A stretch of DNA of 64,000 nt, taken from NCBI GenBank assembly GCA_013390945.1, contig JACAUC010000003.1, positions 5,274 through 69,273 of the forward strand. Direction: 5' to 3'. A program made the translations under genes and the position numbers. This stretch comes from Candidatus Chloroheliaceae bacterium (GTDB lineage: Bacteria; Chloroflexota; Chloroflexia; Chloroheliales; Chloroheliaceae). Below the pieces are notes generated by a model. That model was not told the DNA's origin, did no database searches, and saw nothing but the letters and a program-made list of their open reading frames with translations. Positions 13,745 to 62,670 of this stretch are shown here, piece by piece. Every line of letters starts with the position of its first letter. Within the stretch, counting starts at the first letter, position 1.

Positions 13745-13807
13745 AATGGTCTCCATTTAATCCGCTCCGCGGGGCAGAACGAATAGTTTTACAAAGGTGG
13801 TGTTAAG

Positions 13808-15307: not shown

Positions 15308-15396
15308 AAAATTGACTAAATTGACTATGGAGGGTTAGCGTGGCGAGAATCAACGCTCTAAACGCTAACTAAGCTAGGGCCAGGAGCCAATTTCTT

Positions 15397-16380: not shown

Positions 16381-16435
16381 CCTCTTAGGAGTTAAATATC
16401 AATAAATTGTCTAGAATTTCTTTAGGAGGTCTTAT

Positions 16436-23518: not shown

Positions 23519-23619
23519 GAGTGAGAGTTGCCTTTCTTTTGTCGGGTGTTGGGTGTTAGGTGTCGGGTGTCGGGAATTATCCAGCACCTGATACCCGATA
23601 CCCCACCCCTGATACCTAA

Positions 23620-24966: not shown

Positions 24967-25837
24967 AGACCAGTTCCTCCGTGCTACGCCTGCTCCTAAG
25001 TTCATCCGGCGTGGCGCGGCGTAACCGTCCCCGCGTCTTCTGCTGGAACATGCGGTAAAATTCCTCAAAATCGAGTGGATTCGGGATGACGGATTCGGTT
25101 TGATCCATATTAGCAATAAACTTATCCATTGCCTCCCGCATTTCGGGAATTTCCATTACTTCAAAGGCATCTTTCATCATTACCGCCTCTGGTACAAATG
25201 GCATATTGGCTAGGATCGGAATACCGGTTTGGGCGGTGTAAGACTTAGCTACGCCCGTACCATCATCTTTATTGAGGATTAGGCCCAAGACGCGGCTTTC
25301 GCTTCCCTCCTCGGCGTAGTGCGCTACGGCCCGGCTAACATTGTTTGCCACGTAAAGCGATTGTTGGTCATTACCGGCCACAATCACAATCTCACGGGCG
25401 ATGGAACGGGCAAAGCTCATTCCAAAGCCACCACAAACCACGTCGCCTAAGAAGTCCAGCAGTACCACATCAAAGTCCCAGCTAAAGAGTCCCAGCTTTG
25501 AGAGGGTGTCAAAGCCGAGGACGATACCCTTACCGCCACAGCCCCGTCCGGTCTCCGGCCCGCCTAACTCCGCCGCGTAGACTCCGTTGCGTTCAAAGAT
25601 CACATCGCTGGCCGTTAGGTTTTCATCCTCACCATTTTCGTGGAATTCGCGCCAGACTTCTAGGATAGTAGGCAGTAAGACTCCCTTAAAGAGGGTTGCA
25701 GTCGAGTCGTGTTTGGGGTCACAACCAATTTGCAAGACACGTTTGCCTTGCTGAACTAGCCGGACACTTAGGCAACTGCTCAAGAAACTCTTGCCACTAC
25801 CACCCTTGCCGTAGATGGCAATTACTCTCTGGCCCAT
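24959..25837 (-). CDS. bchX: chlorophyllide a reductase iron protein
   Basis: IAIYGKGGSGKSF, GGPETGRGCGGKGI, VLLDFLGDVVCGGFG, NDQQSLYVANNV and NKDDGTG are BchX-type blocks, not BchL or NifH. The next two genes are BchY and BchZ. Confidence 0.9.
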   Translation of the reverse strand: MGQRVIAIYGKGGSGKSFLSSCLSVRLVQQGKRVLQIGCDPKHDSTATLFKGVLLPTILEVWREFHENGEDENLTASDVIFERNGVYAAELGGPETGRGCGGKGIVLGFDTLSKLGLFSWDFDVVLLDFLGDVVCGGFGMSFARSIAREIVIVAGNDQQSLYVANNVSRAVAHYAEEGSESRVLGLILNKDDGTGVAKSYTAQTGIPILANMPFVPEAVMMKDAFEVMEIPEMREAMDKFIANMDQTESVIPNPLDFEEFYRMFQQKTRGRLRRATPDELRSRRSTEELVYA

Positions 25838-41244: not shown

Positions 41245-41853
41245 ATGCGTCAGGAAGCATTTGGTCAGAAAAAGCTGACTTTTGTAGACCGTTTTGGAGT
41301 TTATCTTTCACAAGAGCCTATTTTTAAGGTAGTGCGGTCTTACCAACACCCAAGCCTCTTAGATATTGGCTGTGGTTATCAAGCCCATCTGCTTCAAAAT
41401 TTGCGACCCTTAATCGAACAAGGAGTCGGTGTGGATGTACAGATCAATCCCTCTGCCAGAACCATCCCAAATTTAAGCTTTTATGAGCAACCCATTGAAC
41501 AGGCTTTTGACCAGTTGAAGGGTCAAGCTTTTGATATTGTAATGATGGTGTCGGTGTTGGAACATCTGGTTGAGCCACTCGATGTGTTGAGAGCATGTTA
41601 TGGCTTGTTAAAGCCGGGAGGCACTTTAATTTTGAATGTTCCAAACTGGCGTGGCAAATTTTTCCTTGAATTATCGGCTTTCAAATTAGGTTTGAGTCCT
41701 GCCTATGAAATGGATGATCATAAAATGTACTATGATAAACGTGATCTATGGCCTTTGCTGGTACGCGCAGGCTTCAAACCTAGTCTTATCCACTTGAAAT
41801 ATCATAAATTTAGCCTGAATTTATTTGCTACTGCCCAAAAGGGCAAGAAGTAG
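41245..41853 (+). CDS. class I SAM-dependent methyltransferase
   Basis: LLDIGCGYQAHLL motif I, MVSVLEHL, LKPGGTLILNVPN. Confidence 0.75.
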   Translation: MRQEAFGQKKLTFVDRFGVYLSQEPIFKVVRSYQHPSLLDIGCGYQAHLLQNLRPLIEQGVGVDVQINPSARTIPNLSFYEQPIEQAFDQLKGQAFDIVMMVSVLEHLVEPLDVLRACYGLLKPGGTLILNVPNWRGKFFLELSAFKLGLSPAYEMDDHKMYYDKRDLWPLLVRAGFKPSLIHLKYHKFSLNLFATAQKGKK

Positions 41854-42820
41854 ATTCGTTTTGCCAACATCTGAAACCAATTTAGCTGAACCCACTGCAC
41901 GTCGGTTTGGTCTTCAGCCTTATCTGCCCTTGATGGCCCTAACTACTATTATATGGGGCGCGGCTTTTCCAATTACTAAGCCGGGCCTAGCCGATATGCC
42001 TCCGGCTACTTTTGCCTTTTTGCGCTTTGTAATTACCCTAATAATTTTGTTGCCACCGCTCTTTATCTTGCGCGGAGGTTGGCATATTTCCCGGCGCGAT
42101 TGGGGACGGGTGGCTTTGGCGGGTTTAATGGGCTTTGCCCTGATCCAGTTGGGTCAAAATTGGGGCTTGATCCTTAGCCTTGCCAGCGATATTTCTGTTT
42201 TAGCGGCGACCGAGCCGATTTCAATAACTCTGTTGGCGGCGTTTCTGCTGGGCGAGAAGCCTAACCGGGCAGTTTGGTTGGGTTTGCTAGTCAGCTTAGC
42301 TGGAGTTTTGCTGGTCATTGGAATCAACCCCCTAGATTTATTTAGCGCAGGCGGAGGCGCGAAAGGGGATAGTGGTAGTCGGATTTTGGGCGATTTAATC
42401 TTTCTCTTTGGCACTTTGGGTTGGGCTGCTTATAATGTAATAACCCGTAGCCTCTCCCGCCGCTATAATGGGTTGGAGATGTTGACTGGGGCACTCATCT
42501 TCGGGTTGCTCGGTTTGGCTCCCTTTAGCCTGCTTGAACTAACTGTAATGGCTCAGCCGATACGTTGGAGTGGAGCGGTAGTGATAGGTTTGGTCTATTC
42601 GGCTTTGTTGGTCACGATTTTTGGTTTTTTGGCTTTGTCATGGTCACTCAAACGGGTTCCGGCGGCAAAAGTGGCCCTGCTCTTTTATCTTCAGCCGCTT
42701 TCTGGGGTATTGGTGGCGTGGCTAGGTGGTGAACAATTGTCGTGGAATTTTGGGGTAGGCGCACTTCTGATCTTAGCCGGGGTCTATCTGGCCGAACAAC
42801 TCGGTCAGATAGAGGGCTAA
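41825..42820 (+). CDS. EamA/DMT-superfamily transporter
   Basis: Ten predicted TMs arranged as two EamA repeats. The track start overlaps the upstream gene by 29 nt. The ATG at 41933 (MALTTIIWGAAFPITK) is a plausible true start. Confidence 0.75.
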   Translation: MLLPKRARSRFVLPTSETNLAEPTARRFGLQPYLPLMALTTIIWGAAFPITKPGLADMPPATFAFLRFVITLIILLPPLFILRGGWHISRRDWGRVALAGLMGFALIQLGQNWGLILSLASDISVLAATEPISITLLAAFLLGEKPNRAVWLGLLVSLAGVLLVIGINPLDLFSAGGGAKGDSGSRILGDLIFLFGTLGWAAYNVITRSLSRRYNGLEMLTGALIFGLLGLAPFSLLELTVMAQPIRWSGAVVIGLVYSALLVTIFGFLALSWSLKRVPAAKVALLFYLQPLSGVLVAWLGGEQLSWNFGVGALLILAGVYLAEQLGQIEG

Positions 42821-49268: not shown

Positions 49269-51362
49269 TTATCGCAATCCCTCGGCGGCGGTGGTGACGC
49301 TGTGGGTAATAGTTCGGGCATCGGCGCGAGGTAGATAGATGTAGTGACCGCACAACTTACGGGCTAGACTAGCGGCCTCGCCTCGACTAAGGAAGCTAGT
49401 TTGGGTATCTAGCACCACCGTCGAAAGCCCTTCACTAGCCAGCAACGAAGCCAATTGCTCTACTTCTTGGGCCGCTTGCGACTTGCGCTCGTCTTTGGAA
49501 AGTGTGGCAGTTTCATCATTCTCCTGAAGCAAAACATTCCCGCGACCATCGGTAATCAAAATTACCATCGTCTTATTGATTCCTTGCCGCCTAGCACTTT
49601 CACTCATTCGCCAAGCGGTCATCATCGCGGAGGCCAGCGGCGTACCACCACCAGTAGGCAACACGTCCAATGACCGTTTGGCTAACTCTACGCTCTGGCT
49701 AGGAGGCAGCAGCACCTCGGCTTCGCGGCCTCGGAAAGAGATCAAGGCCACTTTATCGCGGTGAACATAAGCCTGCTGTAGCAATTGAGTTACGGCTCCT
49801 TTTGCTTCGCGCATTCGGTTTAAGGCCATCGAACCACTGGCATCCACCACAAAGATAAAGAGTACCCCAGCCTTATCTTTATAGCGTTTGAGCCTCAAGT
49901 CATCGGAACGCACCAGCACTTTAGCACCACTACTCGGCTTCCTTGCTCTGGTTTTAGGGGCAGGAACGGGTATTGGTTTAAACACCGCTTTCCGGCCTTT
50001 TTTACCTTCCAGTTTTCGAATATTTTGGAAGGGAGCCGCCGCTCGCAAAGTATCAATAATAGCAATCCGACCTCGGCCCGGTTTACCCGGCACACTCTGG
50101 ATGTGGCGACCGCGCTTCCAGTTATAGGTTTCGCCTCGGCTGCCCGACTTGGCTCGCTGTTGGCGGGCTTGAACCAACGACAGAATATCAGCTGGTAATT
50201 CGGTCTCTAGGGCTGCCATTATCAAATCATCCACTTGAGGTTCCTGCTCCTCCTGCTGTTCGGGAGGTTCCGGTTCCTCATTCTCTGGTGGAGGCGGTTC
50301 TTCTTCTTCGGGCTCTTCTGGTTCGGGCGGCTCTGGCTCTTCCGGTTCTGGTTCGGGTAAACGGGTAGCGCGTGGCAATAAGACTAAACGCACCGCCGCC
50401 TTCAGATCATCATCGTCTACCTCTATCCGTCCCTCCAAAGCGGCGGAGGCCAAAGCAACCCTAGTGGAGAAGAGATCCACCCGATTGCCCATTACTCCCA
50501 TTCGCAGGGCCGTCTCACTCAAGGCTCTCAACTGCTCGTCCGTGATTGTGACATGGGGCAAGACTTTGCGCCCTTCGACAATCAAGGTGCGTAGCATTTC
50601 GGTTTCCTCTTCGTACACGGCATTCAGGTTGACCGGATCACGATCCCAACTCAGGGCGCGAGTCATAATCTCGGCCCGATCATTTGGCCCTACAGGAGGA
50701 GTGCCAGGTACAATCAGCCCTACCCGGTCAGTCAGTCCATCCCGTACCTCGCCTTCGTCCGGGTTAAAAGTACCGATCAGGATAAACTCGGTGGGATAGT
50801 CGGCACTTAGTCCATCTCGTTCTAAGGCCAACCGACCTCGGCTCAAGGCATCCATCAGATAGTTACCCGGCCCATCATCCAAGAGGTTCATTTCATCGCA
50901 ATAAAGTATACCCCGATTGGCCTCGGCCAACAGACCGCGTTCGGCAATACGCTGTCCCGTTTGCAAAGTAGCTTCGAGGGCCAACCCACCTAACAACCGA
51001 TCTTCGGTTATATTAAGGGGCAGATTGACAAAAGGTGGGGGCGAATTAGTAATGGTAAACTTCTGGGCATGGGAACCTCTATAACTCTTCTTGCAATCGC
51101 TACACCACTTTTCGGGTTGGGCCGGATCACAATGTGATTGGCAACTAGCGATAGATTTGATAGAGGGTAATAGGGCATGAAAACTACGGGCCATAATAGT
51201 TTTAGCCGTACCAGGCCGGGCTGAGATAATCACCCCGCCCAATTTTGGGTCAATTGCCAGTAGCAAAAGCCCCCGTTTTGCCCAAGGGTGTCCTACCACC
51301 GCTGCAAAGGGATAATGCAGATAATCCGCTTGGTGCTTCTCCTGTTTATCTAAAGTTAACAT
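49269..51362 (-). CDS. bchD: magnesium chelatase subunit D
   Basis: N-terminal AAA+-like module (YPFAAVVGHPWAKRGLLLLAIDPKLGGVIISARPGTAKT). Acidic Pro/Glu linker (PEPEPEEPEPPEPEEPEEEEPPPPENEEPEPPEQQEEQEP). C-terminal vWA domain with MIDAS (FVVDASGSM). Confidence 0.9.
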   Translation of the reverse strand: MLTLDKQEKHQADYLHYPFAAVVGHPWAKRGLLLLAIDPKLGGVIISARPGTAKTIMARSFHALLPSIKSIASCQSHCDPAQPEKWCSDCKKSYRGSHAQKFTITNSPPPFVNLPLNITEDRLLGGLALEATLQTGQRIAERGLLAEANRGILYCDEMNLLDDGPGNYLMDALSRGRLALERDGLSADYPTEFILIGTFNPDEGEVRDGLTDRVGLIVPGTPPVGPNDRAEIMTRALSWDRDPVNLNAVYEEETEMLRTLIVEGRKVLPHVTITDEQLRALSETALRMGVMGNRVDLFSTRVALASAALEGRIEVDDDDLKAAVRLVLLPRATRLPEPEPEEPEPPEPEEPEEEEPPPPENEEPEPPEQQEEQEPQVDDLIMAALETELPADILSLVQARQQRAKSGSRGETYNWKRGRHIQSVPGKPGRGRIAIIDTLRAAAPFQNIRKLEGKKGRKAVFKPIPVPAPKTRARKPSSGAKVLVRSDDLRLKRYKDKAGVLFIFVVDASGSMALNRMREAKGAVTQLLQQAYVHRDKVALISFRGREAEVLLPPSQSVELAKRSLDVLPTGGGTPLASAMMTAWRMSESARRQGINKTMVILITDGRGNVLLQENDETATLSKDERKSQAAQEVEQLASLLASEGLSTVVLDTQTSFLSRGEAASLARKLCGHYIYLPRADARTITHSVTTAAEGLR

Positions 51363-51495: not shown

Positions 51496-53199
51496 ATGAA
51501 TCAACCTGAATCGGCAGGACCACCACCTGCTCCCAACCTTGAACAGACAACTCCGTCCTCCGCTTCACCCGATGAGCCTAAAACTTCAAAGGCAGCTAAG
51601 AATATGTCGTTGGGGCGCAAGACTGGTCGCGCACTCTTTTGGAATGTCTTCTTTCTACCCCTCAAAGCTGGTTTACAACTCTTCGTGACCCTCGTTATCG
51701 TCAAGACCTTCCCACTAGAAGCTTACGCAGTGTTGGCGGCAGTTACTGCTGTCCTTAGTACATTGGGACTCTATGTAGACTTAGGTATCGAACGGGCCTT
51801 GCCGCGTTTCGTAAGTGAGATTGAGCAGAAACAAGGCCGGGCGGCACTACGTCTCTTTATCACCCGTATTACCCTCATCAAACTGGCCGTGCTAACCGTC
51901 GTAGTCTTGATTATCACCGTAGCCGCCGAACCAATTATCAGTTGGATGGGTAGTTGGGGCGATCAGGGTCACATTTACTTAGCTCTAATTAGCATGTTAT
52001 TGGTATTGGGCGCACTTTATGACATTTGTACCCAAATCCTCTATAGCTTTTTCAAGCAAAAAGTCACTAACCTGCTTGACATTGTAGTAACTGTACTCAA
52101 TCCTCTGCTCACGCTGTTACTGGTTGGCCCTTTGGGGCTACGGGTCTATGGCGTAGTGCTGGCCCTACTTATCACCACCGTTATTAGTGTCGGAATTGCT
52201 GGCTGGCAAGCTTGGCTGGCTTCAAAAGACCTTGAAGTCAAATTAAAAACTCCCAAACCTAACCCAGCCCCTTCCGCGACTGATACCGGAGTGATCCCCC
52301 GTGAAAGCCTGCTCAAGCGCTTCATTCGGTATGCGGCCCTGATGTACTTTTTCAACATCTCAGCTTGGTTCTACGATGCCTCTTTCGCGATGTTGGTCTT
52401 CACCTTCTACCGGGAGATTGTCACAGTGGCCTTGATCCGCTTGATTTACAATTTCATCAAGACCCTATTAAAGAACTTGTTGTCCCCCTTTGTAGGAGTA
52501 CAAACACCTCTCTTTTCCTCCATCCATGCCGAGGGTCACACCCCTAAATTGCACACTGCTTATGCTTCAATCAGCAAACTTCAAATTTTTATTCTAGTGC
52601 CAAGTAGTATTGGTGCGATCATCTTAGCCCGTAACATCCTTGAACTTCTCTTTGCCCGTAAGAGTGCCGATGCGGTGCTACCTGTTACGCTGCTGGAACC
52701 GGCTACTTGGGCCACCATCCTCACTATCATCTTTACCTTTGCCGAAGCCCTTATCAGTCTGCCAATGGTGATACTGATGGTCTACGAACGTTATCGGGCG
52801 GTAATTTTGGCCCGTACCTTACCACTGTTAGCAGGGCCACTGCTGATACTAACTGCCGCCCTACATTGGAATGTGGTGGTTGCCGTAACGATAATGGGTT
52901 TGATGGCAGTTAGTTCACGAGTGATGGCCATGGTCTCATTACAACGGACGCTGGGCCTCTATTACCCGGTTAAATTCCTTCTCAAAGTCTCGAAAGCGGC
53001 CCTAGCCTTTGGTATCCCTTTGCAAATCCTCGTTCTCTTCTTGCCGATCAACTGGCCTATAACCCTAGGCATAGCAGGTACGGGTGTTATAATCTTCTAT
53101 GCGGTTTTTAAAGGGTTGGGCGGTTTTGACCTAGAGGACAAAAACCGCCTACAAACCCTTAAAATGCCTTTACGCAAATATATAATTAAGTGGTTTTAG
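51496..53199 (+). CDS. MOP-superfamily (Wzx/MurJ-like) polysaccharide/lipid flippase
   Basis: ~14 hydrophobic helices with a polysaccharide-biosynthesis-protein-like layout. I prefer the MNQPES ATG at 51496 over the track start at 51421. The 3' end overlaps the bchI 3' end by 4 nt (convergent). Confidence 0.55.
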   Translation: MNQPESAGPPPAPNLEQTTPSSASPDEPKTSKAAKNMSLGRKTGRALFWNVFFLPLKAGLQLFVTLVIVKTFPLEAYAVLAAVTAVLSTLGLYVDLGIERALPRFVSEIEQKQGRAALRLFITRITLIKLAVLTVVVLIITVAAEPIISWMGSWGDQGHIYLALISMLLVLGALYDICTQILYSFFKQKVTNLLDIVVTVLNPLLTLLLVGPLGLRVYGVVLALLITTVISVGIAGWQAWLASKDLEVKLKTPKPNPAPSATDTGVIPRESLLKRFIRYAALMYFFNISAWFYDASFAMLVFTFYREIVTVALIRLIYNFIKTLLKNLLSPFVGVQTPLFSSIHAEGHTPKLHTAYASISKLQIFILVPSSIGAIILARNILELLFARKSADAVLPVTLLEPATWATILTIIFTFAEALISLPMVILMVYERYRAVILARTLPLLAGPLLILTAALHWNVVVAVTIMGLMAVSSRVMAMVSLQRTLGLYYPVKFLLKVSKAALAFGIPLQILVLFLPINWPITLGIAGTGVIIFYAVFKGLGGFDLEDKNRLQTLKMPLRKYIIKWF

Positions 53200-54368
53200 G
53201 CTTTAACGCCTAACACTTTTTCTGCCGCTTGCTCAATCTTGATGCCACTATCGGTATTGTCGAGGGGGTCTTTTCGCAGGCGGTGGCGTAGCGAAAGACC
53301 TACTACATTCCGTACATCCTCCAGCGTGACAATCTTCTTGTGGCTAAGAGCCGCTTGAGCGGTAGCAGCGCGAGCAATGGTCAACTCGCCCCGGTGTCCG
53401 TCCACGCTCAAGGCTAGGCATAATTCGGCAATTTTTAGCAAGACTTCATGGGGCAACGCTACTTGGGGTAGAAGTTTCTGAGCATTTTTGATTTGGCGGC
53501 GCAATTTTTCCTGAGCAGGCTCCCACTCTGCCATAAAATCGGCTGGATTTAGCTCAAAACTCTGGCGACGTTTGACAATCTCCACTCGCTGTTCCAGATC
53601 AATAATGGTAATAATGCGAGAGTGTAGACCAAAGCGATCCAACAATTGCGGACGCAAATCGCCTTCCTCAGGATTGCCACTACCCACCAACACGAACCGG
53701 GCTGGGTGGCGCACACTAATACCTTCGCGTTCTACCGTATTTACCCCACCAGCCGCCACGTCCAGCAATACGTCCACAAGGTGATCTTCTAAGAGGTTTA
53801 CCTCATCAATATAGAGGAACCCGCGATTGGAACGGGCCAACAGTCCTGGCTCAAAAGCTTTGATACCTTGATTTAGGGCTTTTTCAATATCAATTGTGCC
53901 GCAAACCCGGTCTTCGGTAGCACCTAGCGGTAAGTCTACCACCGGAACAGGCGCATAATGTCCCGTGAGTTTTTGCCCTTTCGACAGCTTATCCCGGCAA
54001 TCGCGGCAGAGTGCGCCACGCCGCTCGGTATCGGGATCGCAGCCATAGAAGCAGTTTGCTACTACTTTAATGCGTGGCAACAAATCGGCGAGGGCGCGAA
54101 CAATGGTGCTTTTGCCAGTTCCGCGGTGGCCCATAATCATTACCCCCCCAATTTTGGGGTCAATCACATTGAGCAAAAGCGACCGCTTCATCTCTTCCTG
54201 TCCCACGATGGCAGCAAAGGGATAGACATAGTGGGCTTCTACCTCATCTTTGCCCTTTGCCGTAGTTTTTGCTTTCCCTTTGACAGTAGGCGTTTCTTCG
54301 CCATTACCATTTTCCAGCAGCTCGTCCGGTTCGTCTACAGGTATGGTATTTTCTATTAGCTCGGTCAT
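53196..54368 (-). CDS. bchI: magnesium chelatase ATPase subunit I
   Basis: YPFAAIVGQEEMKRSLLLNVIDPKIGGVMIMGHRGTGKST (Walker A), FLYIDEVNLLEDHLVDVLLDVAA (Walker B), SGNPEEGDLRPQLLDRFGL. It has a ~40-aa N-terminal extension. Confidence 0.9.
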   Translation of the reverse strand: MTELIENTIPVDEPDELLENGNGEETPTVKGKAKTTAKGKDEVEAHYVYPFAAIVGQEEMKRSLLLNVIDPKIGGVMIMGHRGTGKSTIVRALADLLPRIKVVANCFYGCDPDTERRGALCRDCRDKLSKGQKLTGHYAPVPVVDLPLGATEDRVCGTIDIEKALNQGIKAFEPGLLARSNRGFLYIDEVNLLEDHLVDVLLDVAAGGVNTVEREGISVRHPARFVLVGSGNPEEGDLRPQLLDRFGLHSRIITIIDLEQRVEIVKRRQSFELNPADFMAEWEPAQEKLRRQIKNAQKLLPQVALPHEVLLKIAELCLALSVDGHRGELTIARAATAQAALSHKKIVTLEDVRNVVGLSLRHRLRKDPLDNTDSGIKIEQAAEKVLGVKA

Positions 54369-54432: not shown

Positions 54433-55491
54433 TTAGCTTTTTAGCGCATTTTCAAGTCCAAACTCTAATGACTCTGATTTACCATTACTAGAATCATTGG
54501 TAATCATTGTGGTCAAGTTAATAGAAGCGCGGGTTAGGTGTAACTTGAGCAAAGTTGCCACCTGAGCAGGTAATTCAGCCAAGATCAGATGACCACAATG
54601 GGGCATAACAAAATAAGTACAATTAGGCAGTAAGGTGGCAAGGCGTTTACTGCTTTTCTGACTGATTACTTTGTCGTGCGAACCAGCCACTAGGAGTGTG
54701 GGCATTTTGAGTGAGACTACCCATTGAGGTAACTGATCCAATACCTCCCTTGACATAGTAGATTTAGCCATATAAAAGGCGGCATTGGGCGAAGTATCTC
54801 GCAGGCTCAAGAGTCCATACTCAATATCACGACGTGAGGCCGGATTTTTTAGCAGGGTGAGGCGGGCATAGTAGTAGACGGCCCGCCAAGATTTGAGTCG
54901 TCGCAACACTTTGCTAAAAACTGTAGCAAGAGCTTTGGCCCCAAACTGCTCAAAAGCGGCACTATACTTGAAAAGACCATAGTTGAAAAAGGCCACACTA
55001 GCCACCGATTCAGGATAGCGAGCGGCGTAAGCCGTAGCAATTAGCGAACCGACCGAGAAAGAGAGGAGATGGAATTTTTCCAACTGGAGCAATTCGGCTA
55101 GTTTACGGAGGTCGTCAACTAGCGTGGCGATTTCGTAATCCGCTACGATAGGGTCATCGGTGAAGCCATGTCCGCGTAAATCATAATTGATCGTGCGAAA
55201 GCCTGCGATATTGAGAATGTCTACGATGCTGTGCCACCAAAAAGAGGAACAATCCCAGCCATGCAATAGGATCACCGACTCACCCTTGGGTGGGCCTTCA
55301 TCTAGGTAGAAATGGTTGACTCCGTTTATTTTTACGAAGTGGGCCTGCTCCAGTTTGGAAAGGTCTTCCTGCAGGTTGGCTCGACGCTGTGTATTGGTGT
55401 GGGGTAAGGCAATTTCAGCCTGGGCGAGTGTGGCATATTCCAACGCTTTCGCTGTAGGCACCCCTTCACAACCTACCTTCTGCTTCATCAT
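54433..55491 (-). CDS. alpha/beta-fold hydrolase, BchO-like by position
   Basis: HGWDCSSFWW oxyanion region, nucleophile elbow SFSVGS, C-terminal HCGH histidine. It lies directly upstream of bchI. Purple-bacterial bchI-bchD-bchO clusters encode a similar hydrolase, so the BchO label is a context inference. Confidence 0.55.
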   Translation of the reverse strand: MMKQKVGCEGVPTAKALEYATLAQAEIALPHTNTQRRANLQEDLSKLEQAHFVKINGVNHFYLDEGPPKGESVILLHGWDCSSFWWHSIVDILNIAGFRTINYDLRGHGFTDDPIVADYEIATLVDDLRKLAELLQLEKFHLLSFSVGSLIATAYAARYPESVASVAFFNYGLFKYSAAFEQFGAKALATVFSKVLRRLKSWRAVYYYARLTLLKNPASRRDIEYGLLSLRDTSPNAAFYMAKSTMSREVLDQLPQWVVSLKMPTLLVAGSHDKVISQKSSKRLATLLPNCTYFVMPHCGHLILAELPAQVATLLKLHLTRASINLTTMITNDSSNGKSESLEFGLENALKS

Positions 55492-55993
55492 TATTTGCCC
55501 TCTAATTTATACTCTGCTAACTTAATCATATTTTTAGTTTAAGTAAAGACTAGTAAGAAGCGCAGAAAAACAATTACCGCCAAAACGGACATGTTACAAT
55601 TATAACAAGGCCAAAGTGGGGTAGTATGTAGTAATAACTACACCTTAAGGGGGTGGTTGTTACTGCACCGATAGACCAAGCGAGTGAAACTCTGGATAAT
55701 ATTAGTGCAAGGCGGGTTAAACTTAGCCAGAAATGAGGCTGTAGCTAAAACTACCGCTAAAAAAGCGGGGCTTGATATAGAATAGGACTATCGCATAAGA
55801 ACTTTTTCGCTCACTCGGCCTTCTCGTAATCGCTTTATATTCCCCGTGTGAGTAGTTTTAAGATAGTTACTGTGCCTGGCAAAAAACCAGGTAGGTTTTG
55901 CTTTACCTGAAAACTACAGGGAGCCAAATTCCCTGTGGATAAGCCGCACCGATCTTACAAACGACAAAATTTAACTAGAGAGGAGGCTGGCCG

Positions 55994-56671
55994 GTGGCTT
56001 TTCAAAGATTTCGGTTCAACTCAAGACGAAACAAAATTGCCACCAGTGTGCTGGGGCTACCCGAAACCCAGGCAGTTTACTTTAGTGTCTGGCTCGCTGG
56101 CATATTAATTGGTGTCGTATTAATGATTATCCTTGTAGGTTTAATCGGCAATGGTGTGGATACACCACGTACGCAACAAACCGCTAGGGAAAATCAGGGG
56201 GACATCGTAGCACCAATCCAACTAGTCTACCGAGATGCTCAGGGAAATCTAGCTACTGCACAGCAAGCTGGTTTCTCTAATGGCGTGGTAGCCCAAGTAG
56301 ATAGTTGGGAACGAGCAGCCGCGCAGGGTGATAAAGTAGCTCAAGCCGAGCTACAAGCAGCACGTGGTCGCGGACAAGCTAACTTTAATCGGATCTGTAT
56401 TGGTTGTCATTACGGCGCACCCCAAGCATCTTCCAGTGGCCCTTATCTGGGGAACCTTTACCAGACTAAGACCGTCTTCAATGGTAAGCCGCTCAATGAT
56501 GCTAATGTAGTTACTTTTATCTTATTAGGCAGTCAGTCTCACAACTTGGTGGCGGATGGTCAGCATGTGCTGGTCAATGGGAGCGGTGGTTTTATGCCGA
56601 TGCCCTCCGGAATTGCTACACCGCAGCAAGCTGTAGACATAATGCTTTATTTGAAACAACAAACGAGTTAA
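55994..56671 (+). CDS. membrane-anchored monoheme c-type cytochrome (candidate reaction-centre electron donor)
   Basis: 225 aa with a GTG start after a gagaggagg RBS. One TM (VWLAGILIGVVLMIILVGLIG). The CXXCH heme motif CIGCH is at 56396-56410. A distal Met candidate lies in GGFMPMPSG. It ends 30 nt upstream of the pscA-like gene. Confidence 0.75.
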   Translation: MAFQRFRFNSRRNKIATSVLGLPETQAVYFSVWLAGILIGVVLMIILVGLIGNGVDTPRTQQTARENQGDIVAPIQLVYRDAQGNLATAQQAGFSNGVVAQVDSWERAAAQGDKVAQAELQAARGRGQANFNRICIGCHYGAPQASSSGPYLGNLYQTKTVFNGKPLNDANVVTFILLGSQSHNLVADGQHVLVNGSGGFMPMPSGIATPQQAVDIMLYLKQQTS

Positions 56672-56701
56672 TAAACCTTAGGCTAGTAAGGAGCACAAGC
56701 G

Positions 56702-58489
56702 ATGAGCATTACCCTGCAACCGGGCGCCCGTCCGCTCATCAATCGGCCAGCACTAAACAAAGCGGCTGAGCTGCATGTGCCAGGATACCGCTGGTATCAG
56801 CTTTTTGCCTTTCCGCGTACCGAAGATCAGATTTTTGGCGGCCACTTGATTGTGGCCGGTGCAATCGGTTCGATGGTAGCGTTCAACATTGGCAGTGGGC
56901 TTACCTTCCCTGGTAACTATTTTTTCCTTACCATCGAGCCACAGCTTTACAATCTAGGTATTGATACCAAAGAAAAGCTCTTGACCTATACCCTGATCCA
57001 TATCATCTCTAGTCTGGGCTTAATCTTCTTTGGTTGGTGGCACTATCGCAATAAAGTGTTACAGGCTGCCGCCTCAAGCTACGCGAAGGCGTGGGGTGGG
57101 CATTTGGTCTATATCGCTTGGTGGTGCTTCGCCTGGGTGCTGTGGAGTACGTTGGTAATGCAGCGCGGCCCTAAGTTTGGTACAGATGGATGGATATGGG
57201 CCGCAGCAGGAGCGCAAGATTTAACCTTTAATGGTGACGCCCTACTGCTTTGTCTGTCGGTAATATTGCTGGTAACCGGGTTGGTAACTTGGCGCAAGCC
57301 GCCGACCTTTAATCGGCATTTGGAAGATCCAAAAGCGCAACTTCACGTCAATCTGGTGGTCTTTGGCTGGACAGGCATGTTGTTCAGTGCCTTTGCCTGG
57401 TTCACCTTCCCGCGAGGCTCAAACGCCGCCGCAGGCCAGTGGAGCGATGTGGCTCTTAATCTCTACGTGTGGAACCACATTAACTGCAGCTTCCTCTACA
57501 TCATCGGCGGTGTCTTTCACGGCGCTCAGTACCTCTGGGACGTGCGCGAGGATGACTCCAAGAACCCTTGGGTAGTAAGTCGCTGGGTACGCTGGTTCGA
57601 TAGTCAAGACCGTCAGGCCAGTATCACGAGTACAATCTTCCTCTTGGCCTTCTTTACCGGCTTTAGTGCTTGGTCTGTAATGGGTATCAACTCAATGGTG
57701 GATTTTAAGCTCTTTCCCCAAGAGTGGTACATTGACGGTCTGCGGCCTTACGTAATGGAATGGTTGACCCCCGGCCTGCTGCACGTCTGGCCTGGATATA
57801 AAACGAGTGTCAGTGATTGGGTCTTTATACATGCTCTTGTAGCTGGTTTCTTCTTTGTAGGGATACCAGTCACTCGGTCAGTATTTTTCACCAGACGTAG
57901 TCCCTTGTTTGATGCAAAAGGGATCACTAAACGTAGTTTCGATTATCCTTGTCTAGGGCCGGCCTATGGCGGTACCTGCGGTTACAGTATTCAAGATCAA
58001 ATCTGGTTAGCAATGCTATGGGGAATTAAACCGCTCTCGGTTATCGTTTGGTACATGATGGGTGTCTACTTTGGTAGTTTGCAGTTCGCAATTAACCCGA
58101 AAGACCCATCAGGTGATACTAGCTTCCCTGGAAGACCCGGAGCTTTGTTCTTCATCTTCCAAGCTACCAGTAAAATCTGGAATGATGGTCACTTGACGAT
58201 GATACTCTATCTTGGACACCTTGTTTGGCTATTAAGCTTTATGTTCTGGTTTGAGTATCGGGGTAGCCGTCTCGAAGGAGCGTATATCCTCAGTCAGGCA
58301 CTTAAACGTTGGTTCGGTATTAATATGGTGCCTGAACGCTTTGTTATGACGCTGGTAGGTAGCCGTATGTTAGGTACCTTCCTCTACTATGGTGGAGTCT
58401 TCATGTGTGTCTTTACCTATCTCTCGGTAGGTTTCGCTTGGAGGCCAAACATCCTAGCGCCAGTAGTCGCACCATTAGGCGGTCCATAG
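56702..58489 (+). CDS. pscA: type I photosynthetic reaction-centre core protein (PscA/PshA/PsaA-PsaB family), divergent and compact
   Basis: 595 aa and polytopic. The FX [4Fe-4S] loop FDYPCLGPAYGGTC has Cys417 at 57950-57952 and Cys426 at 57977-57979. Compare the family consensus FPC.GP.RGGTC. The penultimate helix ILYLGHLVWLLSFMFWFEYRGSRLEG (His506 at 58217-58219) aligns with PsaA [26 protein letters not shown], which carries the special-pair ligand. RBS is taaggagca. Confidence 0.85.
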   Translation: MSITLQPGARPLINRPALNKAAELHVPGYRWYQLFAFPRTEDQIFGGHLIVAGAIGSMVAFNIGSGLTFPGNYFFLTIEPQLYNLGIDTKEKLLTYTLIHIISSLGLIFFGWWHYRNKVLQAAASSYAKAWGGHLVYIAWWCFAWVLWSTLVMQRGPKFGTDGWIWAAAGAQDLTFNGDALLLCLSVILLVTGLVTWRKPPTFNRHLEDPKAQLHVNLVVFGWTGMLFSAFAWFTFPRGSNAAAGQWSDVALNLYVWNHINCSFLYIIGGVFHGAQYLWDVREDDSKNPWVVSRWVRWFDSQDRQASITSTIFLLAFFTGFSAWSVMGINSMVDFKLFPQEWYIDGLRPYVMEWLTPGLLHVWPGYKTSVSDWVFIHALVAGFFFVGIPVTRSVFFTRRSPLFDAKGITKRSFDYPCLGPAYGGTCGYSIQDQIWLAMLWGIKPLSVIVWYMMGVYFGSLQFAINPKDPSGDTSFPGRPGALFFIFQATSKIWNDGHLTMILYLGHLVWLLSFMFWFEYRGSRLEGAYILSQALKRWFGINMVPERFVMTLVGSRMLGTFLYYGGVFMCVFTYLSVGFAWRPNILAPVVAPLGGP

Positions 58490-58697
58490 CCTTATCTGGT
58501 TTAGGCTTATCGAATGAAGTGGGCAACTCACGGGGTTGCCCACCAATGTCAAAGGTTGTGGTAAGCTAAACTATAAGATCCGTAGTTTCTGGCTCAACGT
58601 TAAAAGCAACAAAGATTTTCGTTTCTATTTCTTAACCAAAGTAAAGAGTTATTTCTTTAAGAAATAAACGATCCATTAGCTAAGGAGGTTCCCACAT

Positions 58698-59819
58698 ATG
58701 CCGCAGTTCCTAGAAGGAAGGGCAGAACAGGGGAGAGGTCAGGCCGATTGGCGCTGCCGATATGATGATGATTGGTGGTTAAATACCCAAGTTCGCGCAC
58801 TTCTTGGTTGCCCTACCGCTGTCCCCAAATTGCCACTCGAAACGGAAGTTGAATTCCGCGCTCGCCCTAAAGGTGACGATATTTCAGAGTGTACCGTCAA
58901 GGTCGAATCATTGGTGGAAGGGGTCAAAAAAACCCTTGAAATTAGTGCTTTAATTACAGACCTAGATGAACATACTCGCGAAAGTAAGGGTTTTGGTCGT
59001 ATTATTGTAGGTGACTTTATTCACCCCTTTGAGTGGCGCGGTACGGTCAAGCGCGAGACTTACGTACCTGATAGCAGTCTTAATCTGACTCGCTCACAAA
59101 CTTACATCGGTGGTCGGCTCTTACACGACGTGACCGCTCGTATCGCGTTGGATACCCCGATTGCCCGTGAAGCTTGGGAGCAGGTTCGCACTGTAACTGC
59201 TCGCAATAGCGATGTTTTGACCAAAACGGTCTTCTTTGGCCCACTCTGGCGCACGGCTGACCTAACCGGGCAGCTTTACGAGGATATTCAGGTGAAGACC
59301 CTCAGTGCCAGTGAAGGGAAAACCTTAAGTCGCGTCAGCTTTATCACCAGCGGTACAGGCCAAGTAGACAGTATTACTTACTGGACACGTCTCTTCCCCA
59401 TTTCGTTGCTCAAAGGACGTGAGGCTTTTGTCAAAGGTAAGTATGTAACCGATGCCAGTAGTATTAGGGTTTCGGTAGATGCCGAACTACCCGGTTTAGT
59501 GGAACGCAAAGATGGACTTCTAAAGGTAATTGACCACCCGCAGATACCCATCCTGCACCATGGCCTCGTTGGTCAGCCCATTCCGCTAGATCTGGATTTC
59601 AAGCTCAACCTAACGACACCCAATGGTTGGCGCATTAAAGAAGCCGATCCAAGTTATCGCAAGAAGATTGGTAAGAATGATTACCTATTCCAAGGCGGTG
59701 CCTATCTCAGTTTCGTCAATACTATCGCGCGTGGCAACTTAGCCCCGTTCGATGTCTGGTTTGATCGCGATGAGGCCGGTGCCTCGCTTAGCCCCAATGC
59801 AGCTATCGCAGTGAAGTAA
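58698..59819 (+). CDS. fmoA: Fenna-Matthews-Olson bacteriochlorophyll a protein
   Basis: 373 aa. Blocks align to Chlorobaculum FmoA: VGDFIHPFEWRG (cf VGDFSHTFSFEG), GGRLLHDVTARIALD (cf QGRQFHDILMKVPLD), VDSITYWTRLFP (cf VDSISRWAELFP), IDHPQIPILHHGLVG (cf LNHPLIPLVHHGMVG), QGGAYLSFV (cf SGGAYARWV). All five His ligands are conserved. RBS is taaggagg. Confidence 0.9.
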   Translation: MPQFLEGRAEQGRGQADWRCRYDDDWWLNTQVRALLGCPTAVPKLPLETEVEFRARPKGDDISECTVKVESLVEGVKKTLEISALITDLDEHTRESKGFGRIIVGDFIHPFEWRGTVKRETYVPDSSLNLTRSQTYIGGRLLHDVTARIALDTPIAREAWEQVRTVTARNSDVLTKTVFFGPLWRTADLTGQLYEDIQVKTLSASEGKTLSRVSFITSGTGQVDSITYWTRLFPISLLKGREAFVKGKYVTDASSIRVSVDAELPGLVERKDGLLKVIDHPQIPILHHGLVGQPIPLDLDFKLNLTTPNGWRIKEADPSYRKKIGKNDYLFQGGAYLSFVNTIARGNLAPFDVWFDRDEAGASLSPNAAIAVK

Positions 59820-60100
59820 CTTATCGGAGACCCGCTTTCAGCCATCAGCTTTTGATAAGTTGATGGCTGGCGGCGGATGGCTGATAGTTTTTTAACAACA
59901 AGCTACATCCAAGCTTATTTAAATGGCTGACTCGGCAAGATCGTTCTTTTGGTCGGCTGATGACCTTCTATCCGTAGGGGCCAACAGTGTAAAGTCGGCA
60001 AGCAAGAGCGGTTGAGGCGCAAGCGGTTGAGTCGGGCAGGCAGGTAAGCGAGCAAGTCAATATAGCTAGTGACAGTGAGTAAGTGAATCCACAAAACAAT

Positions 60101-60134
60101 GTCGGCTCTTTGAGTGAGGGAGCCGGCTTTTTTT
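60101..60134 (+). terminator. orphan rho-independent terminator ~280 nt downstream of fmoA
   Basis: GTCGGCTC-N11-GAGCCGGC stem followed by T7 (60128-60134). No ORF of 60 aa or more ends here. Confidence 0.5.
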
Positions 60135-60205
60135 ATGGGCAGTCTACTTAAATCTAAAACAATTTTGGTTTAGCCTTGGGCTTAGTACCATCTCAGTTAA
60201 TCGAA

Positions 60206-60249
60206 AAGAGGCTCCACCAGAAAGAAATAACTTTCTGGTGGAGCCTCTT
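60206..60249 (-). terminator. perfect 19-bp hairpin terminating the 32-aa minus-strand ORF
   Basis: AAGAGGCTCCACCAGAAAG-aaataa-CTTTCTGGTGGAGCCTCTT. On the minus strand it is followed by UUCGAUU, giving CUCUUUUCG. Confidence 0.55.
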
Positions 60250-60281
60250 GCGCTGTATCACCTCAAAAACCTGATAGACCG

Positions 60282-60380
60282 CTAAGAAGCCGCTACCGTA
60301 TTTAGAGCTAGAAACACTAAGCCAATTACACCAAAACCTAAGGATATTACGCGAGTTAAGTGTTGCTGATTTGTCTTCAT
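60282..60380 (-). CDS. candidate 32-aa single-TM peptide (below the ORF-track length cut-off)
   Basis: My translation is MKTNQQHLTRVISLGFGVIGLVFLALNTVAAS. A gaggt RBS lies 5 nt upstream of the ATG. A strong hairpin lies 30 nt downstream of the stop. Confidence 0.4.
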   Translation of the reverse strand: MKTNQQHLTRVISLGFGVIGLVFLALNTVAAS

Positions 60381-60497
60381 CTTTACCTCAAAATTTCTTG
60401 AAACAGATTGGGTTCCAAAGTTCCATAAAATCAGGTTACATAAATTTTTGGTCTATACAACTAAAACTAGTTAAAATCTATGCGTGTCAAACTACAC

Positions 60498-60535
60498 AAA
60501 AAAAACCAGTCTAAGTAGAATTCTACTTAGACTGG
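60498..60535 (-). terminator. rho-independent terminator after the 93-aa ORF
   Basis: CCAGTCTAAGTAG-aatt-CTACTTAGACTGG perfect 13-bp stem. A plus-strand A8 (60498-60505) gives U8 on the minus-strand transcript. Confidence 0.7.
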
Positions 60536-60556
60536 GAATTTATTTTGGTGGGATAA

Positions 60557-60838
60557 CTAAACGCGCTTTCGTCCTGTTTTGCCACTAAATAGTGCGGCTA
60601 GACCACTGGAGTTGTTGGCTACAATTTGGGTGGCTTTATTTTCGGCACTATTTGACGAAGGCAGTGTTTTGCCTTGCTTGAGGCGACCAATTAGTTTTGG
60701 TTTAGGAGTCAACAGGTCGCTGACAAAGGGATGCGCTCCCCATCTAGGTGCATCGGCGTGGTGCAGCACATAGCCTAAATTGAGGTCTTCATCGTGTATA
60801 CCGGGGGTAGGTTTTTTAGTTTTTGGTGATTCCATCAT
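60557..60838 (-). CDS. hypothetical small basic protein
   Basis: 93-aa ORF bracketed by a clean terminator. No motif recognised (HHADAPRWGAHPFVSD). Confidence 0.45.
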   Translation of the reverse strand: MMESPKTKKPTPGIHDEDLNLGYVLHHADAPRWGAHPFVSDLLTPKPKLIGRLKQGKTLPSSNSAENKATQIVANNSSGLAALFSGKTGRKRV

Positions 60839-60981
60839 TCATCTCTTCTTGTTATGTAAAATTTTGTTAAAATTAAACCAACCTAACAATACCACGAAAT
60901 GCCGCTAAATTCAAGTTTGGAATCAATCAATGGACGGAGCCATATCCCACAAGATTCGCGCTCTTGTAGGAAGCGGCTCAG

Positions 60982-62670
60982 TCAGCCGAATTTTAGAAAG
61001 GGAGCCGGGTCTACCACTTGGTTTTGATAGCGGATCTCATAATGGACATGTGGCCCAGTAGAATAGCCCGTATTGCCAGAAAGGGCAATCACTTCTCCGG
61101 CCTTCACCGTTTGACCTGCTACTACCAATAACCGCGAGTTGTGACCATAGATGGTGATGAAGCCTCCCGGATGGTTAATAAAAACTACTTGACCGTAGCC
61201 CCCACGCCCATCTCCCGCATATTCCACTACTCCACTGGCGGTAGCTTTTACTAGAGTTCCTTGTACTACCCCAATATCAATGCCCGTGTGAAATTCCATA
61301 CCAGACCCTACCTCAATGCTACTACTACTTACCACAGGCTCCTTCAGATTAATACTAGGGGTCGGGGTAAGCTCTGGTGTAGCGGTTGGGGTAACGTCGG
61401 GTAGAACGGTAAGCGTGGTGGTGATGGTGGTCTCTGGCGCAACTGTAGGTGTTGTGGTTGCGGTAAAGGTAGGCGTGGTGGTGGTTAGTGCCGGAAAAGG
61501 AGTCAGGGTAAGGGTTGGGGTGATAGTGGTTAGCATCGGAATACGGTTAATGATGGCAGGAGTGATATTGGTCTGTATTGGGATAGTGGCAGGGCGATTA
61601 CCCGTCAGAGAAGTTGGGGTTGGTGTCGTTGTGTTGGTTGGGCTGCTTGTAACTTGGGCTATTCCAGCGCGGGCGGTAGTCGGGTTATTTCCACCTTTGC
61701 CTTCAGCGACCGTTGTGCCACTATCTTCAGGCTTAGAATTTGTCGTGGTATCGGTAATAATAAGAATAGGACGTGGGCCAAAAGGTGACGTAATCGGGCC
61801 ATGAACCGGCCAGCCTTGCGGTGCGTAGCTAAGAGCGGCTAGTTTTTCGGCGGAAGTTCCCAAAATGGCTGCTACAATGCTAGGTGTTACGCTATTATTG
61901 CTACTAAGATTGCTGTGAGCCACGCCATTAGCAGCCGTCTCTACCCTGCTATAATTCAAGAATGATTCCCGTACCTCATTACCTAGCGTGGAAAGGTCTT
62001 GCGAAAAACTTAGTAGTTGTTCGTTAAAAGTCTTTAGTATTACCTTCTCTTCATTTACGCCACTTAGTGCCAAAGAAGTGCTGGTTGGAGTTGGTGTAGT
62101 AAAATCAGGAGTGAGGGTGGTGATTGGTAACGGAGTGTCGGTTGAGGTGGTAGAGCTAGGAACGGGGCTAGTGACTGGCAACAGGGTGCTGGTTGGAATG
62201 GGTGTTGTAAAATCAGGAGCAGGTAGGTTAAGATTTTTCTCAAGAGTAGCGGCATACTCCTTGAGTTTGTCTACCAAAATGTGCAATTCCAACAAATCTT
62301 GTCGTACAGATTCTAGATCATTTTGATAATGCCCTAGCACCGAATTATCCGGGTTTAACGGGTCTGAACTGGTCTGACCTTTAGCCGCAGCCGTTTGGGC
62401 TAATTTGGCGGACGTTTCCTTTTCTGTGTCCAATAATTTTTGAATACGATCCACTTCTTCCTTTTGCTTGGCGGCAACGCTGATTAGATCACTTCGTTTT
62501 CCAGCCGCAATAGTGGCTTGACGATCACGTTCTTGGCTCTCTTGGTTCCGCTGGGCTTTAAGTACATTTACCTCTTGGCTTAAGCTTTCTCCATCCCAGT
62601 ATAGTGACAGACTAAGCGCAATTGCTGCAAGTAGCAACCCGATTAGCCCAAGTATAATCCATTTTTTCAT
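60982..62670 (-). CDS. M23-family (LytM-type) metallopeptidase with an N-terminal TM, a coiled coil and Thr/Pro-rich linkers
   Basis: The C-terminal LytM domain is HTGIDIGVVQGTLVKATASGVV ... IYGHNSRLLVVAGQTVKAGEVIALSGNTGYSTGPHVHYEI (HxxxD and HxH). The N-terminal region is heptad-rich. Confidence 0.85.
   Translation of the reverse strand: MKKWIILGLIGLLLAAIALSLSLYWDGESLSQEVNVLKAQRNQESQERDRQATIAAGKRSDLISVAAKQKEEVDRIQKLLDTEKETSAKLAQTAAAKGQTSSDPLNPDNSVLGHYQNDLESVRQDLLELHILVDKLKEYAATLEKNLNLPAPDFTTPIPTSTLLPVTSPVPSSTTSTDTPLPITTLTPDFTTPTPTSTSLALSGVNEEKVILKTFNEQLLSFSQDLSTLGNEVRESFLNYSRVETAANGVAHSNLSSNNSVTPSIVAAILGTSAEKLAALSYAPQGWPVHGPITSPFGPRPILIITDTTTNSKPEDSGTTVAEGKGGNNPTTARAGIAQVTSSPTNTTTPTPTSLTGNRPATIPIQTNITPAIINRIPMLTTITPTLTLTPFPALTTTTPTFTATTTPTVAPETTITTTLTVLPDVTPTATPELTPTPSINLKEPVVSSSSIEVGSGMEFHTGIDIGVVQGTLVKATASGVVEYAGDGRGGYGQVVFINHPGGFITIYGHNSRLLVVAGQTVKAGEVIALSGNTGYSTGPHVHYEIRYQNQVVDPAPFLKFG

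Follow-up and report, generated by a model that had tools for sequence, protein, structure and literature searches.

FMO, the Fenna-Matthews-Olson protein, is a textbook model of excitation-energy transfer and was, to our knowledge, known from only two phyla until 2024. An open reading frame (ORF) in a genome of the Chloroflexota raises the question of whether its product is a genuine FMO protein that retains the pigment sites of the green-sulfur protein, and in which regions it departs from that protein. The ORF occupies positions 58698-59819 of a stretch of 64,000 nucleotides from a Candidatus Chloroheliaceae bacterium (GenBank assembly GCA_013390945.1, contig JACAUC010000003.1, positions 5,274 to 69,273 of the forward strand), the whole of which is referred to here as the window. 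An earlier note, made from the sequence of the window, had read the ORF as a divergent FmoA in which all five histidine ligands of bacteriochlorophyll (BChl) are present and the termini are remodelled. In the current work, its product is found to be a full-length, functional-looking homologue of FmoA, and evidence from sequence, profiles and fold gives full support to the reading as a divergent FmoA with all five histidine ligands.

Identity of the protein and its pigment ligands

The ORF encodes 373 amino acids (aa) followed by a stop codon, and the strand opposite to it contains stop codons throughout. Its start at 58698 is regarded as secure because a Shine-Dalgarno sequence, forming a ribosome-binding site graded as strong, precedes it (Table 1) and because the N-terminus MPxFLEGRAEQG is common to all FmoA homologues found; the N- and C-terminal sequences quoted in the earlier note match the translation exactly. 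The Pfam profile BChl_A (PF02327) matches residues 27-354 along profile positions 13-354 of 355, with an E-value of 6.6e-49 and a score of 167.1 bits against a gathering cut-off of 25. A phmmer search of all sequences of the Protein Data Bank (PDB) retrieved FMO proteins only (from Prosthecochloris aestuarii, Chlorobaculum tepidum and Pelodictyon phaeum), six distinct FMO sequences matching the product over residues 26-355 with E-values of 1e-47 to 1e-48, the best being 3EOJ/4BCL (E=1.3e-48; residues 26-355 corresponding to PDB residues 25-364). Alignment by hhalign of a profile of 10 Chloroheliales sequences with a profile of eight green-sulfur FmoA sequences gave a probability of 100% and an E-value of 1.9e-40 over 348 columns, in which residues 7-355 are matched to residues 5-366.

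Structure prediction by AlphaFold2 (AF2) from a shallow alignment of 10 Chloroheliales sequences reached a predicted local distance difference test score (pLDDT) of 41 and was discarded. A 17-sequence alignment, to which green-sulfur FmoA had been added, yielded a model with a pLDDT of 64 and a predicted template modelling score of 0.62, in which the strands of the beta-shell are confident (pLDDT 70-90). When this model was compared with the PDB by Foldseek, the top 16 matches were all FMO chains (E~1e-26, template modelling scores of 0.61-0.66, ~360 columns), and the best match after these has an E-value of 7e-3. The predicted fold is thus the two-sheet ‘taco shell’ of FMO, whose chains are the only significant matches.

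Residues were compared in a 20-sequence alignment spanning three clades, the Chloroheliales (10), the Chloracidobacterium-type (1) and the green-sulfur (8) proteins, and P. aestuarii numbering was rebuilt from the HMMER alignment, with H110, H145, H290, H297, H298, L242, Y123, F165, S168 and C353 checked as landmarks. The histidine ligands of BChl 1, 3, 4, 6 and 7 are present and in register with those of P. aestuarii, as the earlier note had proposed, with no offset in the alignment, and all five columns are invariant in the 10 Chloroheliales, the single Chloracidobacterium-type and the eight green-sulfur sequences. Leu232 also stands in an invariant column, at the position of Leu242, the BChl 5 ligand, a residue number consistent with RWTELFPVE in the rebuilt numbering. 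Tyr122 is invariant in all three clades and is the equivalent of Tyr123, whose backbone carbonyl is reportedly the ligand of BChl 8 (Tronrud et al. 2009). The same invariance across the three clades is observed for Q192 (equivalent to Q198) and Y336 (equivalent to Y345). The assignment and type of the ligands of the FMO pigments follow published work (PMC2882565), in which the ligand of BChl 5 is a backbone carbonyl oxygen. The pigment-ligand residues (the five histidines, L232 and Y122) are all kept in Chloroheliales FmoA.

Selection was evaluated on 11 Chloroheliales fmoA genes. Their synonymous sites are saturated (pS 0.72-0.78), so that dN/dS is not computable, and the proportions of non-synonymous (pN) and synonymous (pS) differences were used together with regional amino-acid identity. 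With a pN of ~0.08 against a pS of ~0.72, non-synonymous divergence amounts to about one ninth of synonymous divergence, and fmoA is under strong purifying selection.

We consider it very probable that the ORF is a functional FmoA orthologue of a ‘Ca. Chloroheliales’ phototroph, carrying seven core BChl a on conserved ligands and connecting the chlorosome with the type I reaction centre encoded next to it. This reading is carried by homology, collinearity, conservation of the ligands, the fold, purifying selection and linkage to pscA and to bacteriochlorophyll genes. The protein would most likely fold into the FMO two-sheet shell, in which the seven core BChl a would be bound by the ligands used in green sulfur bacteria, namely five histidines, a leucine backbone carbonyl and a water molecule. 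Presumably as a trimer, it would receive excitation energy from the baseplate of the chlorosome and hand it on to the homodimeric type I reaction centre, the core gene of which is found immediately upstream.

Several points weigh against this reading. In the pigment-binding segments of the interior (119-232 and 280-294), the pLDDT of the AF2 model is less than 50, so that pigment geometry is not captured by the model; low confidence inside the shell is as expected, since FMO folds around its pigments. As far as the literature was searched, biochemical evidence of pigment binding, trimerisation or Qy absorption was found for no Chloroheliales FmoA. Furthermore, the CsmA homologue of the cultured relative, ‘Ca. 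Chlorohelix allophototropha’ L227-S17, is without the histidine thought to bind baseplate BChl a (Tsuji et al. 2024, Supplementary Note 2, PMC10972752), and the donor side of the energy-transfer chain may therefore be unusual.

The eighth pigment site and the termini

In the alignment, Chloroheliales FmoA differs from green-sulfur FMO in four respects, namely the absence of the quenching cysteines, a deletion in the lid that covers the eighth BChl, the replacement of Trp184 by valine, and a conserved tail composed of an acidic linker and LSPNAAIAxK. With respect to the lid, the earlier note had named the termini as regions that contact the eighth BChl, an assignment that does not agree with the structural literature, in which the BChl 8 segments are internal. 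This pigment is held by a backbone carbonyl and by a covering helix around residues 165-168, of which residues 165 and 168 tune binding (PMC2882565). The Chloroheliales change at this site is accordingly an internal deletion of four residues.

This deletion may be read as the mark of an FMO with a changed pigment complement, in which the eighth BChl a site, where energy would enter from the baseplate, has been lost or rebuilt, leaving seven pigments per monomer or holding the eighth in another pose. Such a change is possible but doubtful. The gap lies exactly at the equivalents of residues 165-168 in 10/10 Chloroheliales sequences, and the loop that follows the carbonyl-donating Tyr122 falls short of its green-sulfur counterpart by one residue and by three of that in the Chloracidobacterium-type protein, which keeps both segments at full length; the lid residues are also present in green-sulfur FmoA. 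Tyr122 itself is nevertheless invariant, side chains are irrelevant to backbone ligation, and the lid lies in a region of low confidence of the AF2 model, while occupancy of BChl 8 varies already among green-sulfur preparations (PMC2882565).

Elsewhere within the protein, the 205-215 loop is 4-5 residues shorter in Chloroheliales than in green-sulfur FmoA, and the position of green-sulfur Trp184 is occupied by valine. An invariant tryptophan, Trp18, stands at the position of C. tepidum Tyr16, which is said, in the literature on a Y16F mutant, to form a hydrogen bond to BChl 3. Oxidative quenching is ascribed to two cysteines, Cys49 beside BChl 2 and Cys353 beside BChl 3 (PMC10355171). No cysteine occupies either position in the Chloroheliales, in which the Cys353 position is alanine in 10/10 sequences and the Cys49 position is threonine, serine or leucine, and the only invariant cysteine of the clade is C38. 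Cys353 is given in the literature as conserved in all green sulfur bacteria, in contrast with two of the eight green-sulfur-type representatives used here (P0035 and P0039, both from metagenomes), which have serine or arginine at this position.

The extra C-terminal tail that the earlier note had pointed out is borne out by three alignment methods, all of which end at F355 and leave 18 residues beyond it, against two in P. aestuarii. The tail is found in every Chloroheliales FmoA, is constant in length, and is absent from green-sulfur and Chloracidobacterium-type FmoA. Its two parts evolve differently within the Chloroheliales: the acidic linker (residues 356-363) has a mean pairwise identity of 43%, and the terminal decapeptide LSPNAAIA[VIL]K (residues 364-373) one of 78%, with a pN of 0.14 against a saturated pS of 0.75. 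Along the tail the pLDDT of the AF2 model drops from 61 to 36, and the tail is predicted to be flexible.

A different docking of Chloroheliales FMO, as the earlier note suggested, is plausible. The C-terminus of green-sulfur FmoA presumably lies near the BChl 3, or reaction-centre, side of the protein. Green sulfur bacteria hold FMO mainly by the PscB arms and PscD (PMC9945994; the clamp is also described in PMC9529944). Tsuji et al. 2024 queried pscD and report none in their main text or supplements, and only a possible pscB (PMC10972752). In the window, a Pfam scan of the ORFs yielded no pscB, pscD or csmA candidate, the ORF at 41825-42820 and ORFs below 110 aa, among which a gene of csmA size would fall, lying outside that scan. 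In the open papers on the interface between FMO and the reaction centre, the partner subunits are described and the terminal residues of FMO are not.

Against this background, the tail might serve as a lineage-specific docking peptide that tethers the FMO trimer to a smaller PscA-like reaction centre or to the baseplate and replaces the clamp formed by the PscB arms and PscD, although we judge this unlikely. Such a role would fit a tail of fixed length that is confined to one of three clades, that is predicted to be flexible and that is built like a short linear motif on a tether, with a variable linker ahead of a constrained ten-residue end, in a lineage for which only a possible pscB has been reported of the green-sulfur attachment. 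The tail could, however, equally pack on its own or on a neighbouring subunit and thereby stabilise the trimer. A wider proposal joins the tail to the lid: the LSPNAAIAxK motif would tether FMO to the PscA-like centre or to the His-less CsmA baseplate, the clamp would be replaced, and with its lid shortened the eighth BChl a would be absent or sit elsewhere. We give this proposal a low probability; if true, it would constitute a third, structurally distinct wiring of a chlorosome to a type I reaction centre.

Remodelling of the N-terminus was not confirmed. The first ~90 residues had been said to bear little resemblance to FmoA of the Chlorobi, yet the two can be aligned from residue 26 by HMMER and from residue 7 by hhalign, W27 is matched to green-sulfur W27, and the length of the N-terminal segment is equal within two residues. 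Compared with green-sulfur FmoA, residues 1-90 are 26.7% and residues 91-355 are 31.9% identical, so that divergence is approximately uniform along the protein. Within the Chloroheliales the first 25 residues have a mean pairwise identity of 87.5% and a pN of 0.076, a constraint equal to that on the core; residues 12-22 are predicted by AF2 to form a strand, with a pLDDT of ~80. Of the two remodelled termini described earlier, the C-terminal tail therefore stands as a genuine, lineage-conserved addition, and the N-terminus does not, being collinear, of the same length and no more divergent than the remainder.

Distribution and origin of the Chloroheliales clade

The presence of fmoA in the Chloroheliales, its divergence and the loss of Cys49 and Cys353 are already known, having been reported in 2024. 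Tsuji et al. (Nature 2024, PMC10972752) described what they term a ‘remote homologue of fmoA’ from ‘Ca. Chlorohelix allophototropha’ L227-S17, from the metagenome-assembled genome (MAG) L227-5C and from lake MAGs, presented an FmoA phylogeny and custom hidden Markov models, and recorded high fmoA expression in lake metatranscriptomes, together with BChl a and c biosynthesis genes and chlorosomes in the cultured relative. In their Supplementary Note 2 the protein is given as 21-26% identical to known FmoA and as lacking both cysteines, and in their Supplementary Data 2 the FmoA of bin L227-5C (NWJ94304.1) is listed as 80.429% identical to the L227-S17 protein (PMC10972752). The FmoA of the window is identical to L227-S17 FmoA at 300 of 373 positions (80.429%), the same figure as in the NWJ94304.1 entry, and it carries the features of the Chloroheliales clade, with at least ~79% identity to Ca. 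Chlorohelix FmoA, a length of 373 aa, the MPxFLEGRAEQG start and the NAAIAxK tail. The distance of 26 accessions from NWJ94304.1 to the bchZ of bin L227-5C likewise agrees with the layout of the window, which is therefore most probably that bin, its FmoA being already present in NCBI.

When 1.84 billion representative proteins were scanned exhaustively with HMMER, only three FmoA clades (Chloroheliales, green-sulfur and Chloracidobacterium-type) emerged at the 50% identity level, together with one fragment and one spurious weak match. A word-indexed homologue search returned Chloroheliales only and missed green-sulfur FmoA, with which no 5-mers are shared; a mixed-alignment query was also used. 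Orthologues of fmoA with 79-83% identity are carried by 10 species-level Chloroflexia genomes. The window protein is 30.6% identical to green-sulfur and 30.9% identical to Chloracidobacterium-type FmoA, and these two are 40.5% identical to each other; because the distance to both clades is equal and the two are closer to each other, a recent transfer is implausible. That the gene might be a decaying or recently transferred green-sulfur or Chloracidobacterium fmoA copy with no role in the organism, an origin to which only the patchy phyletic distribution of FmoA points, is effectively refuted by these distances, by the intact frame and strong purifying selection in at least 11 genomes, by the conserved synteny with pscA and by the place of fmoA among the highly expressed genes of lake metatranscriptomes (Tsuji et al. 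2024).

A functional FmoA orthologue remains the preferred reading, and the closest known protein is that of L227-S17 (OZ401_003705 / WJW68102.1), which is also 373 aa long and collinear with it from end to end, and which likewise has the N-terminal motif, the five histidines, the C-terminal tail and no Cys49 or Cys353. The two differ in gene arrangement, pscA and fmoA lying on separate replicons in L227-S17, whereas in the window pscA lies between a cytochrome c gene and fmoA. Green-sulfur FMO (P. aestuarii 3EOJ/4BCL and C. tepidum 3ENI/3BSD; reaction-centre-FMO complexes 6M32, 7Z6Q and 7UEA/B) has the same fold and core length, the same five histidines, the leucine and tyrosine backbone-ligand residues, Q198 and Y345, and, like Chloroheliales FmoA, it goes together with chlorosomes and a homodimeric type I reaction centre. 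It is only ~31% identical to the window protein, which is set apart from it by the missing cysteines, the four-residue lid deletion, the shorter 205-215 loop, the changes of Trp184 to valine and of Tyr16 to tryptophan, and a C-terminal tail of 16 extra residues; its docking partner PscD is unreported in the Chloroheliales lineage. The third type is represented by P0032, which we take to be FmoA of the Chloracidobacterium thermophilum type. Also from outside the Chlorobiota, it resembles the window protein in having all five histidines and no Cys49, but keeps Cys353 and a full-length BChl 8 lid, has no tail, and carries an insertion of its own of six residues after the BChl 5 ligand region; it is ~31% identical to the window protein, and it stands nearer to green-sulfur FmoA than the window protein does to either of these two.

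The Chloroheliales clade is the most divergent natural FMO variant (~31% identity to both other clades), with every pigment ligand nonetheless kept, and may be regarded as a natural experiment on the protein features that set site energies, redox quenching and docking. In the literature, no paper was found that describes, for Chloroheliales FmoA, the ligand map, the deletion in the lid or the tail. The present work adds residue-level bookkeeping (ligands kept, lid shortened, Trp184 to valine, Tyr16 to tryptophan, and the terminal motif) and the correction concerning the N-terminus, details that are useful for spectroscopy or cryo-electron microscopy of the complex and not a discovery in themselves. 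The residual interest lies in these differences and in a conserved non-coding element downstream of fmoA.

Gene neighbourhood and non-coding elements

Table 1 Coordinates of the features discussed; positions refer to the window, except those of the downstream element in relatives, which refer to the respective locus
Feature	Position	Strand	Remarks
NifH-like gene and two nitrogenase-like subunits (bchXYZ-type)	21710-25837	-	Pfam scan
bchD-like gene (AAA+VWA)	49269-51362	-	Pfam scan
bchI-like gene	53196-54368	-	Pfam scan
Membrane-anchored monohaem cytochrome c gene	55994..56671	+	225 aa; CIGCH motif; directly upstream of pscA
pscA-like type I reaction-centre core gene	56702..58489	+	595 aa; directly upstream of fmoA; FX-cluster motif FDYPCLGPAYGGTCGYS
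Shine-Dalgarno AAGGAGG	58682..58688	+	Read from sequence; 9 nt 5' of fmoA ATG
fmoA (Fenna-Matthews-Olson bacteriochlorophyll a protein, Chloroheliales clade)	58698..59819	+	373 aa + stop
N-terminal 25 residues MPQFLEGRAEQGRGQADWRCRYDDD	58698..58772	+	Collinear with green-sulfur N-terminus
Thr49 codon	58842-58844	+	Position of green-sulfur Cys49
His109 codon	59022..59024	+	In FIHPF; P. aestuarii His110, BChl 1 ligand
Tyr122 codon	59061..59063	+	P. aestuarii Tyr123; invariant in all three clades
His143 codon	59124..59126	+	In LLHDV; P. aestuarii His145, BChl 6 ligand
Four-residue deletion between Q162 and V163	59181..59186	+	Equivalents of P. aestuarii 165-168 absent, BChl 8-covering helix
Leu232 codon	59391..59393	+	P. 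aestuarii Leu242, BChl 5 backbone O ligand; invariant column
His280 codon	59535..59537	+	In DHPQ; P. aestuarii His290, BChl 4 ligand
His287 and His288 codons	59556..59561	+	In ILHHG; His297 (BChl 7) and His298 (BChl 3)
Ala344 codon	59727..59729	+	Position of green-sulfur Cys353 (redox quencher beside BChl 3)
Lineage-specific C-terminal tail DRDEAGASLSPNAAIAVK	59763..59816	+	Variable acidic linker (356-363), then conserved motif (364-373)
Terminator-like hairpin with T-run	60101-60127		3' of fmoA
Downstream element, L001	11366-11385		
Downstream element, L002	11352-11371		
Downstream element, L003	11149-11168		
Downstream element, L004	6943-6962		
Downstream element, L005	11432-11451		
Downstream element, L006	11416-11435		
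Downstream element, L007	11306-11325		
Downstream element, L008	9910-9929		
Downstream element, L009	11238-11257		
Downstream element, L010	10277-10296		

The genes around fmoA are those of an FMO host, a pscA-like gene adjoining it and bchI-, bchD- and bchXYZ-like genes being present in the window; chlorosomes and csmA are reported for the cultured relative (Tsuji et al. 2024, PMC10972752). Among PDB sequences the pscA-like protein is most similar to PscA of C. tepidum (E=6.5e-82), with PscA of Chloracidobacterium and PshA of heliobacteria as the next matches, and it matches Pfam family PF00223. The cytochrome c (Pfam Cytochrom_C, E=4.4e-4) has one N-terminal hydrophobic or transmembrane helix. 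The order cytochrome c-pscA-fmoA (55994-59819 in the window) is kept in 8/10 related Chloroheliales genomes. In the other two, the close L227-S17 relatives L007 (9370-11119) and L008 (7861-9665; ‘Ca. Chlorohelix sp.’ ELA319), the cytochrome c gene is directly followed by fmoA with no pscA between them, and in cultured L227-S17 pscA is found on chromosome 1 and fmoA on a 2.45 Mb contig of the same size as chromosome 2. A lineage-specific rearrangement has split the reaction-centre row in L007 and L008, matching the arrangement of L227-S17.

The cytochrome c gene is syntenic in 10/10 related loci, yet identity of its products is no more than 42-69%. The cytochrome is a candidate for the donor of electrons to the reaction centre, and has one helix as against the three-helix PscC of green sulfur bacteria. 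The bchI- and bchD-like genes are located just upstream of the cytochrome c-pscA-fmoA row on the other strand. Bacteriochlorophyll genes are scattered in the window and interleaved with polysaccharide-synthesis genes, and form no single photosynthesis gene cluster.

A conserved non-coding element occupies positions 60040-60135 (+) of the window and lies 27-310 nt 3' of the fmoA stop codon in 10/10 related genomes. Of the 1.1 kb region 3' of fmoA, blastn recovered no other part, despite the saturation of fmoA synonymous sites. The element consists of an invariant core GTGACAGTGAGTAAGTGAATCCA, followed by a hairpin with an invariant GAGTGAGG loop and then by a T-run; its stem has compensatory changes at six pairs, and one copy is present per locus. 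It is a candidate small RNA, or a candidate regulatory or terminator element of the 3' untranslated region, tied to fmoA. In a search of the window against Rfam nothing reached the gathering threshold, sub-threshold noise of microRNA-hairpin type being the only signal near the element, and a tRNA scan of the window found none.

A second structure, a strong GC-rich hairpin (GTGGGCAAC...GTTGCCCAC) at 58519-58543 (+), is situated in the spacer between pscA and fmoA just after the pscA stop codon and has no T-run. It may serve in processing or stabilising the mRNA, or act as a partial terminator that sets the pscA:fmoA ratio. Among related genomes the spacer has no conservation, except for bases proximal to the ribosome-binding site in one locus, and promoter-like matches in 55400-61000 are not above chance.

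Two small ORFs on the minus strand downstream of fmoA were considered as reaction-centre subunits. The first, a hydrophobic mini-ORF of 32 aa (MKTNQQHLTRVISLGFGVIGLVFLALNTVAAS, 60282-60380), is not conserved in the ten related loci and is probably not such a subunit; one public contig from this organism carries it as a predicted gene. The second, an ORF of 93 aa (60557-60838), was rejected, being likewise not conserved in these loci.

Further away, a row of Tad/Flp-type pilus genes at 10868-17371 (+) encodes an RcpC/CpaB-like protein, a response-regulator-ParA-like ATPase, a T2SSE ATPase and two T2SSF membrane proteins. At 60982-62670 (-), a secreted or anchored M23 peptidase of 562 aa is encoded, whose catalytic domain is preceded by a hydrophobic segment at the N-terminus, a region resembling a coiled coil and a very long low-complexity linker rich in Thr and Pro.

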